Shown: positions 4,297 through 12,265 of the stretch, piece by piece
Layout: every line of letters starts with the position of its first letter
Numbering within the stretch: position 1 is the stretch's first letter
Source: a virus
Lineage: Duplodnaviria > Heunggongvirae > Uroviricota > Caudoviricetes
Virus record (IMG/VR): IMGVR_UViG_2619619125_000002
Length of the DNA stretch: 13,796 nucleotides
Direction: 5' to 3' (one strand)
The notes under the pieces: model-generated
The model's database searches: none
What the model was told of the DNA's origin: nothing
The model's input: the letters and a program-made list of their open reading frames with translations, nothing else
Made by a program: the position numbers and the translations under genes

Positions 4297-4692
4297 CTAA
4301 CCTCGCATGTCAAAGCCAGATTTCTGAAAATCTCTGTAGACTTCCGGATTGTTGAAGGCCGGAAATTTGGCTTTATGAGCTGCGGACTTTATCGCTTCGC
4401 AATAGGCTTTATCACCGTTACTGGTAGATATTTTTAACGCCGTGCCATCCTGAGAGAATTCCATATGCAACCTGCATTTTTTCCCTTTCCAGTTATGCGG
4501 CTCATCAAGTTTGGCATTAATTGCAGCTCTGATTCCCCGCGCTTGCGCCCCCCATTCATCCTGATCATCCCAGCGTCCTGAACTGCAACTACCTGTAGCA
4601 GTAGTTTTGTGGCAATCTGAAGGGTGTAAAGGTGTGCATCCCGCAACAAAACCGACCCAAAAAGTCAACATAACGATTTTCTTTAATCCCAC
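4297..4692 (-). CDS. Lipoprotein with divergent TolA C-terminal (domain III)-like fold, 131 aa, probable GTG start
   Basis: N-terminus MGLKKIVMLTFWVGFVAGC is a lipoprotein signal peptide (lipobox VAGC); GTG start at 4690-4692 preceded by AGGAG with an 8-nt spacer; C-terminal region (KKCRLHMEF...YCEAIKSAA...NPEVYRDFQ) parallels the paralog at 4843-5271. Confidence 0.65.
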   Translation of the reverse strand: MGLKKIVMLTFWVGFVAGCTPLHPSDCHKTTATGSCSSGRWDDQDEWGAQARGIRAAINAKLDEPHNWKGKKCRLHMEFSQDGTALKISTSNGDKAYCEAIKSAAHKAKFPAFNNPEVYRDFQKSGFDMRG

Positions 4693-4842: not shown

Positions 4843-5271
4843 TCAGGGTTTAAAATCCAGCACCCCATTTTGAAATACTTTATATACTTCCGGCGAAGGG
4901 GGGGCAGGTATATCAGCATTCTTTATCGCATTCATCGCTTCACGACATAAATCGAGGTCTCCACTTTCTCTTTTAACCTCCAGTAGAAGGCCATTCGGGG
5001 CCATATGCATTCTCAGTGTACACTCTTTTCCTGAATACTTACTCGCATCCCCGAACTGTTTTTCGATGGCGCTCTTGATTTGATGGGCATACAGACGGAT
5101 ATCCTCACTAACATCAGAAGTACGTTCAGATGAACTCACATACTGTGTCTCTATTGCTTTATCGGAGTAATATGATGTACGGTCATGATAATTTGTCGAT
5201 ACAGCATCAGTGCACCCGATAATAATCCCACTAATAATCAACGTAAGAATTGATGCGCTACGAAAACCCAT
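4843..5271 (-). CDS. Lipoprotein with TolA C-terminal domain (TolA-III) homology, 142 aa
   Basis: Signal peptide with lipobox (IIGC); C-terminal 85 aa (YAHQIKSAIEKQFGDASKYSGKECTLRMHMAPNGLLLEVKRESGDLDLCREAMNAIKNADIPAPPSPEVYKVFQNGVLDFKP) aligns with the C-terminus of E. coli TolA as I remember it (YAGQIKSAIESKFYDASSYAGKTCTLRIKLAPDGMLLDIKPEGGDPALCQAALAAAKLAKIPKPPSQAVYEVFKNAPLDFKP); ATG at 5269-5271 with a GAGGA SD. Confidence 0.8.
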   Translation of the reverse strand: MGFRSASILTLIISGIIIGCTDAVSTNYHDRTSYYSDKAIETQYVSSSERTSDVSEDIRLYAHQIKSAIEKQFGDASKYSGKECTLRMHMAPNGLLLEVKRESGDLDLCREAMNAIKNADIPAPPSPEVYKVFQNGVLDFKP

Positions 5272-5330: not shown

Positions 5331-5860
5331 ACAGCGAATCAGATCAAATAAAACGCACATTTGTTAACATTTACACAAAGTCTGCGTGGGATATTCTGAA
5401 AGAATATCCATAATGTGGAGAGAATCTATTGAAGTGCATGGTGCCGGGTGCCTTCCGGTGAACAAAATGTTCGTGATACCTGTCGGCGACAGAAAAGGTT
5501 AATGGTATCACCCCACCGCACAGGGGGATTCACCATGCAGGAGTTTTCTTAGCAAACTCACTGCGCGCCCGGCAACTCCCAACCACATAAAATGCGGAGT
5601 TTGTGGTATTTATGCATATAACTCGCAGGAATTATCTTAAAAAACTGATGTCGATCCGGATTAAAAAGAAGCAGGTCATCATCAGATGACTGGAAAAAAG
5701 GAAAAAAAAAATACTCATCATACAGTTTTGATTGCAGGGATGAGCCTGCTATGCACAATATGCAGAATATAAGCAAGATAAAAATATGCAGGCATATTAT
5801 TTCGGATTTTGTTATTAACACAACCTTTTTAATAATCATTTGGCATACAATAAACCAGTC

Positions 5861-6857: not shown

Positions 6858-7144
6858 AAATGACCTTTCTTTCTCCAGATTTCTTGTGTGCGAAAAACCC
6901 CTTCAGCATGCATCAGGCGCAATTCTTCTTTGGTGTAATCGCTGGTTTTTACCCGCCCGTCGATTAGATCGTGGCATGAGCTACAGGCTATCGCCGCCTG
7001 CATATCGTGTGGTTTTGTCGCTGTTCCGCACGTCCCCGCCAGCCTGTAATGCGCCAGCACAGAGGTTTCGGGATTGTGATTGCAGTAGCCAGGGATTCTG
7101 ATCTGGCACATCTGGCCTTTAGCCGCTTTACGTAAATTCACCAT
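6854..7144 (-). CDS. YbcO-like (DUF1364) putative zinc-binding nuclease, 96 aa
   Basis: Size, Cys/His pattern (CxxxxxC ... CxxC ... CSSCHDLIDGR) and position just upstream of Q match the DLP12 ybcO / nin-region genes as remembered. Confidence 0.7.
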   Translation of the reverse strand: MVNLRKAAKGQMCQIRIPGYCNHNPETSVLAHYRLAGTCGTATKPHDMQAAIACSSCHDLIDGRVKTSDYTKEELRLMHAEGVFRTQEIWRKKGHL

Positions 7145-7743
7145 TACGCAAACTCCAGTAGTTGTGCGGCCACATTTTCAACTTCCTCCTGAGAGGAGAA
7201 TTTACGAAACAGAATCCAGTTCCACAGCACATTCAGTACAGATTTATAAACCTGCTGAAACTCGACTTCGTCCATATTCGCAAAAGCGATGGATTTTGCC
7301 CGACGCCCACGGCTACCGTCCGGATAAATATGCTCGGTGTAAAATCCGGCCTGAATGGTTACCCACTCGCGGAAAGCCTCAAACGACTTTAGCAACGCCG
7401 TATCCCGGGTTCTACGAGTCGCAACGGTGTTAAGGTATTGCTCTGCGGCATCACTCAGGGCTGGCGTGTGTTCCCGACCAACTGATTCGCACAGGTAATC
7501 AACGAAACCAGACAGCAGTTCTCGTTCGCGAGGCGTGATCGCCCCACCGACCGGAGTCCAGTAATCGAATCCCAGTTGCAGGAGTTTGAAAAAACGCTTG
7601 TGGAATGCGTAGTTACGCACACGCTTAAAGTCTGCGTGTATCCACTCACCTATTTTGATTTGATGCAGAAAATCGCAACTCTCCGGCGTCGCCGGGAGAA
7701 GTAAACCAGAAGAAGTTTGTTTGACCAGTTGTATATGCGCCAT
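7144..7743 (-). CDS. DUF1367-family phage protein (nin-region), 199 aa
   Basis: ATG at 7741-7743; stop overlaps the ybcO-like start (TAATG); position upstream of ybcO/Q typical of lambdoid nin-region genes; family assignment from memory. Confidence 0.6.
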   Translation of the reverse strand: MAHIQLVKQTSSGLLLPATPESCDFLHQIKIGEWIHADFKRVRNYAFHKRFFKLLQLGFDYWTPVGGAITPRERELLSGFVDYLCESVGREHTPALSDAAEQYLNTVATRRTRDTALLKSFEAFREWVTIQAGFYTEHIYPDGSRGRRAKSIAFANMDEVEFQQVYKSVLNVLWNWILFRKFSSQEEVENVAAQLLEFA

Positions 7744-7801
7744 TTCTCAATCTCTCGATGGCGCAGCGCAGCAGATGCCAGTTGTTCAGGCTGACGAATA
7801 A

Positions 7802-7829
7802 AGTATAAATAAACTGGCTATGGTGTAAA
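7802..7829 (-). promoter_or_regulatory. Candidate sigma70 promoter for the DUF1367-ybcO-Q operon (-35 TTTACA, 16-bp spacer, -10 TATACT)
   Basis: On the - strand about 60 nt upstream of the DUF1367 ATG, at the boundary with the AT-rich island. Confidence 0.3.
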
Positions 7830-8023
7830 GCCCCACATAGCATGAACAAACACTACATATCAAATAGCTGGTACAAGGATAGAAATACGACATTTATTAT
7901 TAAAAACGATTAGATAAATTACATTTTAATGTTATGCAAAAGTTCTTTTTTATCATAACATTTCAATAAAAGCATTACAGATGCAATCATCCCGTCATCA
8001 TCAATTATTTAAGGTGGTTAAAC

Positions 8024-8110
8024 ATGGAAAATAACAAGTTCGCACATCTCGCTCCTTTTTTATCCGTAATCCTTTTCGCTTGTTGTTTTATATGGGCATT
8101 ATTTTTATAA
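8024..8110 (+). CDS. Small hydrophobic ORF, 28 aa (MENNKFAHLAPFLSVILFACCFIWALFL), candidate small membrane protein
   Basis: ATG at 8024 preceded by the strong SD AAGGTGG with a 6-nt spacer; single predicted TM helix; lies in AT-rich DNA with no other ORF. Confidence 0.3.
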   Translation: MENNKFAHLAPFLSVILFACCFIWALFL

Positions 8111-8204
8111 AGTAGCCACATGATAAGTTGCTGGAATCATATTTCCCACTCAAGTCATTAACATTTGATAAGATATATCTAAAAGGACGCCTTTACATTA
8201 TTTA

Positions 8205-8231
8205 TGTGTATATAATTTATTTATATACACA
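8205..8231. repeat. Perfect 10-bp inverted repeat tgtgtatata (7-nt spacer) tatatacaca, candidate protein-binding site
   Basis: Read directly from the sequence; the left arm/spacer junction contains TATAAT (8211-8216). Confidence 0.3.
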
Positions 8232-8556
8232 GTAAAGGTATCCTGGGAAAATATTTATCGTTAAAAAATACATCATAAATAATTAAGCTGAAATTTCAGA
8301 ACACAACTAATACACACAATAAGGTTCAGTAACAATAATCTATGTGGACTACATCGAGATTTTTTGATTAAACTTTAATAACTTATTCCTAACACACAGA
8401 ATGCATAAACTAAAAGTAAAACAAATAGTTATACGAAAAACAACCATATTTATTATATCTTCTCCTCTAATCAACATATCAATTATGTGTTTCATAACAG
8501 CTTGACATAACCCTCAAAAACACGCATTTATAATGCATGTTTTTGATGAGGTGGTT

Positions 8557-9618: not shown

Positions 9619-11010
9619 ATGCCATTTGTTATTTATGTGTTTACTATCAGTGCCTTTGCGCTCGGACTCGCGGAATTTGTCCCCATTGGGCTGACAGACG
9701 TTATGGCTCAGGGGTTGTGTGTGGGTGTGGAGCAGACCGGGGCAGCGGTTACAACCTATGCACTGGGGGCAACGTTCGCGGCACCCGTACTGTCTGCGCT
9801 GACAGCAAGCTGGAGCCGGAAAAATGTAATGCTTACAACTGCCGTTGTGTTTACTGCCGGTAGTCTGGCGGCCGCGTTTGCAGCCACATTACCTCAGCTC
9901 CTGTTAGCGCGGTTCATTGCTGGTCTGGGACACGGCCTGTTTCTGGCTGCGGCATCCAGTACCGCAGCTCGTCTTGCTGGACCGGGTAACTGCCCTGACT
10001 GTGGTGCGGTGATGGGCGACGCAACATACCAGGAAACATTCGATGAAGAGAGTCAGGTTGAAGCTAAGGAAAATGATCCGGAGGAAATGGAAGGCGCTGA
10101 ACATCCGCACAATGAGAATGCTGGCAGCGATCCGCATCGCGATTGCAGTGATGAAACTGGCGAAGTCGCAGATCCCGTAATCGTAGAAGACATAGAGCCA
10201 GGTATTTATTACGGAATTTCGAATGAGAATTACCACGCGGGTCCCGGTATCAGTAAGTCTCAGCTCGATGACATTGCTGATACTCCGGCACTATATTTGT
10301 GGCGTAAAAATGCCCCCGTGGACACCACAAAGACAAAAACGCTCGATTTAGGAACTGCTTTCCACTGCCGGGTACTTGAACCGGAAGAATTCAGTAACCG
10401 CTTTATCGTAGCACCTGAATTTAACCGCCGTACAAACGCCGGAAAAGAAGAAGAGAAAGCGTTTCTGATGGAATGCGCAAGCACAGGAAAAACGGTTATC
10501 ACTGCGGAAGAAGGCCGGAAAATTGAACTCATGTATCAAAGCGTTATGGCTTTGCCGCTGGGGCAATGGCTTGTTGAAAGCGCCGGACACGCTGAATCAT
10601 CAATTTACTGGGAAGATCCTGAAACAGGAATTTTGTGTCGGTGCCGTCCGGACAAAATTATCCCTGAATTTCACTGGATCATGGACGTGAAAACTACGGC
10701 GGATATTCAACGATTCAAAACCGCTTATTACGACTACCGCTATCACGTTCAGGATGCGTTCTACAGTGACGGTTATGAAGCACAGTTTGGAGTGCAGCCA
10801 ACTTTCGTTTTTCTGGTTGCCAGCACAACTATTGAATGCGGACGTTATCCGGTTGAAATTTTCATGATGGGCGAAGAAGCAAAACTGGCAGGTCAACAGG
10901 AATATCACCGCAATCTGCGAACCCTGTCTGACTGCCTGAATACCGATGAATGGCCAGCTATTAAGACATTATCACTGCCCCGCTGGGCTAAGGAATATGC
11001 AAATGACTAA
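9619..11010 (+). CDS. recE: Truncated exonuclease VIII (RecE C-terminal catalytic domain) fused in-frame to a foreign N-terminal segment of about 120 aa resembling the first TM helices of an MFS transporter
   Basis: C-terminal ~300 aa (...[17 protein letters not shown]... ending [11 protein letters not shown]) is the RecE nuclease domain with a PD-(D/E)xK-like D-x-K motif and overlaps the recT start by 8 nt; N-terminal 1 to ~120 ([25 protein letters not shown]...[18 protein letters not shown]) is hydrophobic and MFS-like; real ATG with AGGAG SD at 9608-9612. Confidence 0.8.
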
Positions 11011-11868: not shown

Positions 11869-12063
11869 ATGAGATATGACAATGTTAAACCATGTCCATT
11901 TTGTGGTTGTCCATCAGTAACGGTGAAAGCCATTTCAGGATATTACCGAGCGAAGTGTAACGGATGCGAATCCCGAACCGGTTATGGTGGAAGTGAAAAA
12001 GAAGCACTCGAAAGATGGAATAAACGAACCACTGGAAATAATAATGGAGGTGTTCATGTATAA
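11869..12063 (+). CDS. ralR: RalR, Rac prophage restriction-alleviation protein / type I toxin (DNase), 64 aa
   Basis: Translation MRYDNVKPCPFCGCPSVTVKAISGYYRAKCNGCESRTGYGGSEKEALERWNKRTTGNNNGGVHV matches remembered RalR; stop overlaps the ydaC start. Confidence 0.9.
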   Translation: MRYDNVKPCPFCGCPSVTVKAISGYYRAKCNGCESRTGYGGSEKEALERWNKRTTGNNNGGVHV

Positions 12064-12265
12064 AATTACCGCCACTATTGAAAAGGAAGGTGGCACTCCT
12101 ACTAACTGGACAAGATATTCAAAATCTAAACTAACGAAATCAGAATGCGAAAAAATGCTCTCAGGTAAAAAAGAAGCAGGCGTTTCCAGAGAGCAGAAAG
12201 TAAAACTGATAAATTTTAATTGCGAGAAACTTCAGTCCTCGAGAATTGCATTGTATTCAAATTAA
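12056..12265 (+). CDS. ydaC: YdaC, Rac prophage small protein, 69 aa
   Basis: Translation MYKITATIEKEGGTPTNWTRYSKSKLTKSECEKMLSGKKEAGVSREQKVKLINFNCEKLQSSRIALYSN; SD GGAGG upstream of the ATG at 12056. Confidence 0.85.
   Translation: MYKITATIEKEGGTPTNWTRYSKSKLTKSECEKMLSGKKEAGVSREQKVKLINFNCEKLQSSRIALYSN

Follow-up and report, generated by a model that had tools for sequence, protein, structure and literature searches.

Does a reading frame of only 28 codons, lying in an AT-rich spacer of prophage DNA, encode a protein, and if it does, what would that protein do? The question is raised by a 13,796-nt stretch of Caudoviricetes DNA (IMG/VR record IMGVR_UViG_2619619125_000002; hereafter the window). 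An earlier reading made from its letters alone (the sequence-only reading) had picked out a short hydrophobic open reading frame (ORF) behind a strong ribosome-binding site and had suggested a toxin, a membrane modulator or a leader peptide. Conservation and codon pattern among related prophages identify positions 8024-8110 as a genuine protein-coding gene under purifying selection, and we put a high probability on its being real and on its product being a membrane peptide. Comparison of the copies further indicates that the product represents an unannotated small membrane-protein family, which may have an associated antisense RNA.

Conservation and coding pattern of the small gene

The stretch of the window that holds the gene and its Shine-Dalgarno (SD) sequence reads ...ttatttAAGGTGGttaaacATGgaaaataac..., and the exact 16-mer AAGGTGGNNNNNNATG occurs only once in the window. 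The SD sequence, spacer, ATG and 28-codon frame are exactly as the sequence-only reading had them, both in the letters and in the list of ORFs. The gene has no upstream in-frame start; a TAA stands at 7967-7969, and no ATG, GTG or TTG occurs from there to 8024. The AT-rich, otherwise non-coding surroundings that had been described were also confirmed. The spacer (7744-8532, 789 nt) has a G+C content of 30%, compared to 43.6% for the whole window, 32% for the ORF and 44-50% for the flanks, and RefSeq has no feature over the gene. In shuffles of the spacer, an SD-like site followed at 4-9 nt by an ATG and at least 25 open codons arose in only 1.6%. The length of the ORF alone is unremarkable because the same spacer holds several longer ORFs. 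A second small gene in the spacer, encoding 48 residues on the minus strand (8349-8495), was rejected; its variants are all non-synonymous and it has no SD sequence.

Sensitive BLAST of positions 7960-8160 against 5,426 complete Escherichia coli genomes gave matches in 1,175 of them (about 22%). The whole query was matched in 464 genomes, which carry the allele class of the window (F-type). Most other matches, at ~79% identity, were limited to roughly 8004-8111, which is exactly the SD sequence and the ORF. The second and commoner allele class (S-type) is found in 749 genomes, including CFT073, APEC O1 and 042. Loci were collected from IMG/VR, from a one-genome-per-species set (Shigella flexneri and E. 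ruysiae) and from RefSeq, and are cited below by their L numbers where needed. The collected set holds 198 copies, a count in which some contigs figure twice, and comprises 60 cassette haplotypes, 20 ORF alleles and 16 peptide variants from prophages of E. coli, Shigella and E. ruysiae. Every collected copy has an ATG, exactly 28 codons and an SD sequence at constant spacing, and there is one copy per prophage. The sole disrupted copy seen is in L209 (E. coli F1053, 2501-2580), where IS1 cuts the ORF near codon 16 beside a rearranged recE. Carriers in the one-genome-per-species scan were only S. flexneri and E. ruysiae, plus one spurious match to a metagenome-assembled genome. Additionally, a wider pattern search (N-terminus, gap, C-terminus) returned, among the matches listed, only 87-nt members of the family.

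Over the haplotypes the SD sequence is AAGGTGG, AAGGTGAG, AAAGTGAG or AAGGTAG, with the same spacing in all. The predicted duplex with the 3' end of 16S rRNA is strongest in the window (-8.4 kcal/mol) and ranges from -3.9 to -5.8 kcal/mol in the other haplotypes. Among the variable sites of the ORF alleles, 17 of 31 are at third codon positions. Divergent alleles differ at a proportion of 0.27-0.62 of synonymous sites (pS) and 0.05-0.13 of non-synonymous sites (pN), giving pN/pS ratios of 0.10-0.28 with Fisher p values from 2e-6 to 5e-3. Synonymous divergence (dS) between ORF alleles is about 0.8-1.3, indicating that the nucleotides themselves are not frozen. The pN/pS ratios in frames +2, +3, -1 and -3 lie close to 1 or exceed it. 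The expected mirror effect is visible in frame -2, yet this frame contains stops in most alleles, and frame +1 alone is open in every allele. Thus, the check that had been proposed, conservation of the ORF and its SD sequence over related prophages, came out strongly positive across all 20 alleles.

The predicted peptide consists of a polar N-terminus of nine residues followed by a 19-residue hydrophobic helix that reaches the C-terminus. On the Kyte-Doolittle scale, residues 10-28 average +2.5 and residues 1-9 average -0.8. Judged from the sequence, this composition is that of a single-pass inner-membrane microprotein, and the description of the product as a small hydrophobic single-helix protein was borne out by conservation and hydropathy profile. 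At 28 residues it falls within the small (under about 60 aa), hydrophobic and membrane-targeted proteins that characterize type I toxins, and its length is comparable to those of ZorO and TisB (29 residues), DinQ (27) and ShoB (26). The polar head, MENNKxAHx, is strongly conserved, with E2, N3, N4 and H8 invariant, and many positions of the helix are invariant as well. Conservation of the head suggests a specific partner. A conserved helical face as a partner-binding surface was considered and dropped, as the variability moment at 100 degrees gave a permutation p of 0.28.

No family could be assigned to the peptide, since profile searches of Pfam, NCBIfam and PHROG returned noise only. A search of the cassette against Rfam gave no match, while the same search finds sok at hokD and RalA in the window, which served as positive controls. 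RefSeq annotation has no feature over the gene in any listed E. coli genome, and GenBank phage annotation has none either. An exact look-up of seven peptide variants in a collection of 15 billion proteins found none of them. In the searchable literature the peptide strings are absent, and nothing about this ORF was found under the topics of IteAS, the hotspot described below or Rac small proteins. The gene is invisible to annotation pipelines because it is below their length cut-offs. Although unannotated, it is widespread: about 1,175 of the 5,426 complete E. coli genomes carry it, and so do Shigella flexneri and E. ruysiae.

Cassette layout and genomic position

Alignments of distinct haplotypes define a cassette of ~220 nt composed of a near-invariant 48-nt block, a stem-loop, a variable leader, the SD sequence and the ORF (Table 1). 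The distance from the block to the ATG is always 85-87 nt, or 92 nt in one type. The block is almost unchanged although the ORFs diverge at dS ~1, and it varies far less than do synonymous sites in the ORF. It is presumably the promoter region of the small gene. Candidate sense hexamers within it are a -35 TTATTA (7897-7902) with a -10 TACATT (7920-7925), or a -10 TATTAT (7895-7900). These hexamers are present in all copies, in the form TTATTA-17-TA(C/A)ATT, and S-type loci carry an equivalent TTGC(C/T)G-16-TATTAT site, which was flagged as TTGCCG-16-TATTAT in L003. The candidate sense promoters match the consensus at 7-9 of 12 positions. The block also contains TAGATAAATT (7911-7920), one base off the high-affinity H-NS motif, tCGATAAATT, suggesting that the cassette may be subject to xenogeneic silencing.

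Table 1. Positions of the small gene, its signals and the nearby predicted elements in the window.
Feature	Position	Strand	Details and basis
28-codon gene for MENNKFAHLAPFLSVILFACCFIWALFL	8024..8110, stop included (8108-8110)	+	ORF list, conservation, codon pattern
SD sequence AAGGTGG	8011..8017	+	6-nt spacer to ATG at 8024
Near-invariant AT-rich block	7893..7940	.	48 nt, 14.6% G+C; alignments; presumed promoter region
Stem-loop D	7928..7962	.	AATGTTATG (7928-7936) pairs with CATAACATT (7954-7962), 17-nt loop; repeat search, folds, RNAalifold consensus
Extended AT-rich hairpin	8184..8244	+	61 nt, ~75 nt past stop; repeat search; fold z = -3.9
Candidate antisense promoter	8004..8030	-	-35 TTTCCA, complement of 8025-8030; -10 AATAAT, complement of 8004-8009
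Hairpin T	7891..7908	-	CGTTT, 8-nt loop, AAATG, then U-rich stretch; marginal in window
Promoter-like site TTTACA-16-TATACT	7802..7829	-	10/12; before DUF1367/DUF1364/Q-like operon; same in window, L002, L003 and L004

Stem-loop D has a predicted energy of -9.7 kcal/mol on the minus strand and is kept in every cassette type despite unrelated loop sequences. Between stem-loop D and the SD sequence the leader is unalignable between types, and homology of F-type and S-type cassettes stops at the stop codon. The fixed distance from block to ORF, the end of homology at the stop and the variable right-hand neighbors together indicate that the cassette is an autonomous unit. All F-type cassettes share the extended hairpin past the ORF regardless of which gene comes next; it recurs in L038 and L035 despite their different downstream genes, and may form the 3' end or a stabilizer of the transcript. 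Furthermore, the ~390 nt past the F-type ORF (up to about 8500) are shared whatever gene follows. A 56-nt segment that comes after this hairpin in L038 and L035 is missing from the window. S-type loci have a G+C-rich hairpin 17-25 nt past the ORF, which is shared with the convergent gene, hokD or iteS. Where hokD or iteS is the neighbor, the ORF thus has a terminator hairpin behind it, and no canonical one was found after the ORF in the window.

On the left, the first gene of the nin/Q module is invariably the neighbor; it is either DUF1367 or a gene that encodes a 92-aa protein and precedes DUF968. This neighbor occupies the opposite strand, 266-281 nt away, or 1,617 nt away in the one locus with an intervening insertion sequence. 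The promoter-like site before this operon is divergent from the small gene and, if active, would need repression in lysogens. On the right, more than 60 gene arrangements were found over 111 distinct contexts. The right-hand cargo includes hokD/sok, QueH, IteAS and a DUF1971-MFS island, and right-hand proteins also match SIR2/ThsA, Tmn, AbiH, PD-Lambda-2_C and PDC-M36A. In 45 of 87 classified loci, hokD is convergent with the small gene and 110 nt away from it. The hypervariable segment spans from the small ORF to DUF977 and the replication genes, and in the window it begins at 8111. The gene is transcribed into this hotspot, away from nin/Q and against the phage early/late operon.

From these contexts, the gene marks one border of a cargo and defense hotspot in Rac/Qin-type lambdoid prophages of Escherichia and Shigella. 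As a fixed landmark at that border, it should be useful for mining new defense systems. Qin of K-12 lacks the ORF and has rem in the corresponding position. Several large NTPase-like proteins without a defense-family match are encoded in hotspot loci (L002-L004, L007, L012, L035, L075, L081, L177 and others). In L035 an IS3-family element (1490-2830) lies ~60 nt upstream of an intact cassette.

The opposite strand and the possible role of the peptide

The sequence-only reading had proposed a search for an antisense promoter over the 5' untranslated region, and this search found a conserved candidate, flagged at 9/12 in three S-type loci and weak in the window. The -35 hexamer of the candidate overlaps ATG-GAA-AA of the gene. 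Its spacer is 15 nt in the window, which is why it was unflagged there, and 16 nt in other types. The flagged S-type form, on the minus strand of L002, L003 and L004, is TTTCCA-16-(T/C)AT(G/A)AT. A -10 hexamer matching the consensus at five of six positions, with A2 and T6, is present in 194 of the 198 copies as CATAAT, TATGAT or AATAAT. The predicted antisense RNA would start near 7997 and run through the 5' leader of the gene. Hairpin T, ~100 nt downstream of the promoter, would then bound a candidate RNA of ~110 nt that covers the entire leader. In S-type loci hairpin T is CGCTT-N8-AAGCG followed by TTGTTTTTAT and is flagged as terminator-like on the minus strand of L002, L003 and L004; it is predicted to fold at -5 kcal/mol in S-type but at only -0.7 kcal/mol in the window.

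Covariation was analyzed in a 30-sequence alignment with 500 shuffles. Hairpin T is paired in 99.3% of the alignment cells and stem-loop D in 92%. Two pairs of hairpin T change on both sides (G-C/G.U/A-U or C-G/U.G/U-A). Both-sided changes occur in hairpins D and T, and their covariation score was equalled by only 4 of the 500 shuffles, although related sequences can beat a shuffle control without any structure. When the same columns were scored on both strands by G.U asymmetry, the minus strand gave the better pairing for T, D and the long-range helices A and B; for helix C it gave the poorer. In stem-loop D, G.U wobble was rejected as a sign of the strand, because 75% of random transitions in the arm are wobble-compatible. 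The long-range minus-strand helices A, B and C were retained within S-type only; their positions are not homologous in F-type, and rare alleles break them. An antisense partner is plausible as a candidate, with moderate evidence in S-type and the least convincing in the F-type allele of the window itself.

What would such a gene do? The reading that we favor, though tentatively and at something short of even confidence, is a type I toxin-like module, in which synthesis of the membrane peptide would be held down by RNA or transcription from the opposite strand. Four features lead us to this reading: the size and composition of the peptide, the stand-alone unit on mobile DNA, the conserved antisense promoter and the company of hokD/sok. 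Type I toxins are described as small hydrophobic proteins repressed by antisense RNAs, and the peptide matches them in size and composition (PMC2887945, PMC8309996). The sense mRNA would start in or at the invariant block and, from its good SD sequence, would yield a peptide that inserts into the inner membrane. The opposite-strand transcript would start at the promoter over the start codon, cover the whole 5' leader and end at stem-loop D and hairpin T, with the invariant block forming its 3' part. In a lysogen it would keep the peptide low through RNA pairing or transcriptional interference. Loss of the prophage segment, or a disturbance of transcription such as an infection might cause, would let the peptide build up and harm the membrane. 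The outcome would be addiction or abortive-infection behavior like that of the neighboring hokD/sok locus. If the peptide is a toxin, it would represent a new type I family in the best-studied bacterium.

The closest comparison for this reading is with type I loci in which a small RNA (sRNA) lies over the toxin 5' leader, namely ldr/rdl, zorO/orzO, shoB/ohsC, symE/symR and hok/sok. Like these, the locus would encode one hydrophobic helix in a stand-alone cassette on horizontally acquired DNA, has a candidate opposite-strand promoter that overlaps the translation start and a candidate RNA complementary to the leader, and in about half of its contexts has hokD/sok next door. Unlike these families, the small gene has no sequence or profile similarity to them and no Rfam match to an antitoxin, and it is present as one copy per prophage. 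Its leader is not strongly folded, its SD sequence is not sequestered and the antisense features are weak in the allele of the window.

Several observations weigh against a type I toxin-like module. Pfam, NCBIfam, PHROG and Rfam revealed no homology to known type I toxin or antitoxin families. The resemblance in size and character to Ibs, Sho, Ldr and TisB that had been pointed out for the peptide does not extend to its sequence, as no sequence or profile similarity was found to Ibs, ShoB, Ldr, TisB or Hok. The promoter scan of the window gave no sense promoter above its thresholds. Folds of the leader on either strand have z scores of only -1.3 to -2.3, the structures differ per type, and the SD sequence is not in a conserved sequestering helix. 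Four rare alleles break minus-strand helix B, and the caution stated above for the shuffle control applies to hairpins D and T. The minus-strand hairpins could instead serve the phage early operon by terminating transcription ahead of nin/Q. Finally, F-type combines the 15-nt antisense spacer and the -0.7 kcal/mol hairpin T with the strongest SD sequence, and yet it is intact in ~464 genomes. A strong SD sequence, weak antisense features and a common allele are hard to square with a potent toxin that depends on its antitoxin.

This last point is what a benign lysogenic-conversion (moron) gene would accommodate, and such a gene is the main rival to a type I toxin-like module, only slightly less likely in our estimate. 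The lysogen would make a non-toxic helix that modulates an inner-membrane protein of the host or phage. It could, for instance, keep the DNA of superinfecting phages out of the cell or adjust the activity of a transporter or protease, and the minus-strand hairpins would be a terminator or insulator of the early operon ahead of nin/Q. The evidence for a genuine gene that encodes a membrane peptide, and for an autonomous AT-rich cassette oriented the opposite way, fits well with this, as does the set of invariant head and helix residues, which is suggestive of a specific partner. The gene also stands at the border of a hotspot with IteAS, SIR2/ThsA-like, Tmn, AbiH and PD-Lambda-2 genes. Some prophage morons encode small inner-membrane proteins, such as the superinfection-exclusion protein gp15 of HK97. 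Like these, the small gene is an autonomous unit in a lambdoid prophage with deviant base composition (spacer 30% versus flanks 44-50% G+C), patchy presence (~22% of complete E. coli genomes) and a predicted single-pass product. Unlike these, it encodes only 28 residues, sits between the replication side and the nin module, and has a direction of transcription opposed to that of the phage operon. A peptide acting in this way, as modulator or exclusion factor, would be among the smallest lysogenic-conversion proteins.

A moron role is weakened, in turn, by the lack of a conserved membrane-protein neighbor, the right side being variable and the left genes being of the soluble nin type. Variable helix positions are not on one face, giving no sign of a defined packing surface, and the -10-like hexamer kept on the opposite strand in all types is left unexplained. 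Small membrane proteins that act as regulators are a well documented class (PMC12648545). In MgtR, KdpF, PmrR, MgtS and AcrZ, as in the small gene, a short polar N-terminus precedes one helix in a total of ~30 residues, and here the polar head is strongly conserved. Those genes are in or beside the operon of their partner or in a host stress regulon, whereas the small gene has no linked partner and no family match; its left neighbors are DUF1367 or DUF968 and its right-hand neighborhoods number more than 60.

Two further readings give weight to the position of the cassette. The first would combine a new type I-like toxin/antisense family with a fixed gatekeeper of the defense hotspot: convergent transcription and the minus-strand hairpins would insulate the Q/lysis operon from transcription of the cargo, and the membrane peptide would kill by addiction or abortive infection once this balance is upset; we regard this as unlikely. 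The second, quite unlikely in our view, places the function at the level of RNA or transcription, with the cassette and its minus-strand hairpins stopping hotspot transcription from entering the nin/Q-lysis operon in the lysogen and the peptide being secondary. The constant position between hotspot and nin/Q module, facing the hotspot, is consistent with such a gatekeeper, as is an invariant block whose conservation far exceeds that of synonymous sites in the ORF, and hairpins D and T, with their U-rich tail, are found on the strand of the phage operon, immediately upstream of the strong nin promoter-like site. An RNA-only role, however, fails to predict a constant 28 codons, a kept SD sequence and pN/pS of 0.1-0.28 with saturated synonymous sites, and hairpin T is weak (-5 to 0 kcal/mol).

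A chance ORF, or a leader peptide regulating DUF1971 further downstream, is very improbable: the longer chance ORFs of the spacer and the presence of DUF1971 next on the same strand in the window would allow either, but chance is opposed by conservation, codon-position pattern, the rarity of an SD-plus-ORF arrangement in shuffles and 20 alleles in three species, and DUF1971 comes next in one allele class only, 447-505 nt off and apparently with its own promoter. The leader peptide was among the options of the sequence-only reading, and we reject it because the sequence past the ORF is not conserved between types, and in relatives convergent genes come next, with a terminator that they share with the ORF.

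Prophage setting of the window

The prophage remnant that had been suspected was recovered in the gene content, which identifies the window as a Rac prophage with an internal deletion. Left of the spacer, on the minus strand, are trkG, Rz, lysozyme, holin, two genes for TolA C-terminal domains, STnc100, a Q-like DUF1133 gene, DUF1364 and DUF1367 (7144-7743). Right of the spacer are DUF1971, an MFS-RecE fusion, recT, ralR with the RalA antitoxin RNA, ydaC and intR. The fusion is a chimeric ORF (9619-11010, plus strand) of which residues 1-124 match MFS transporters and 114-463 match positions 528-877 of RecE. By comparison with L001, this chimera marks the deletion that took away what else the cargo island had contained, together with the 5' part of recE and the regions for replication and immunity. 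The RalR/RalA type I pair of Rac is intact (11869-12063 on the plus strand and 12062-12240 on the minus strand), with RalA scoring 225 bits in Rfam and RalR matching its NCBIfam equivalog, which places a confirmed type I system 4 kb from the small gene.

Additional elements were seen in the left part of the window. The sRNA family STnc100 matches 5382-5568 on the minus strand, and also 1388-1574 of L004, between the TolA-like genes and the Q-like gene, where it is probably part of a late-operon leader. The TolA C-terminal-domain proteins are encoded at 4297-4692 and 4843-5271 on the minus strand, adjoining the holin gene, according to the annotation of the identical region in L001. TolA-domain genes are unusual cargo for a prophage, and they could disturb the action of colicins or phages that depend on Tol. 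In the tail-fibre-assembly/pin region, at the left end of the window, the Rfam family IS009 matches 35-233 on the minus strand at 221 bits.

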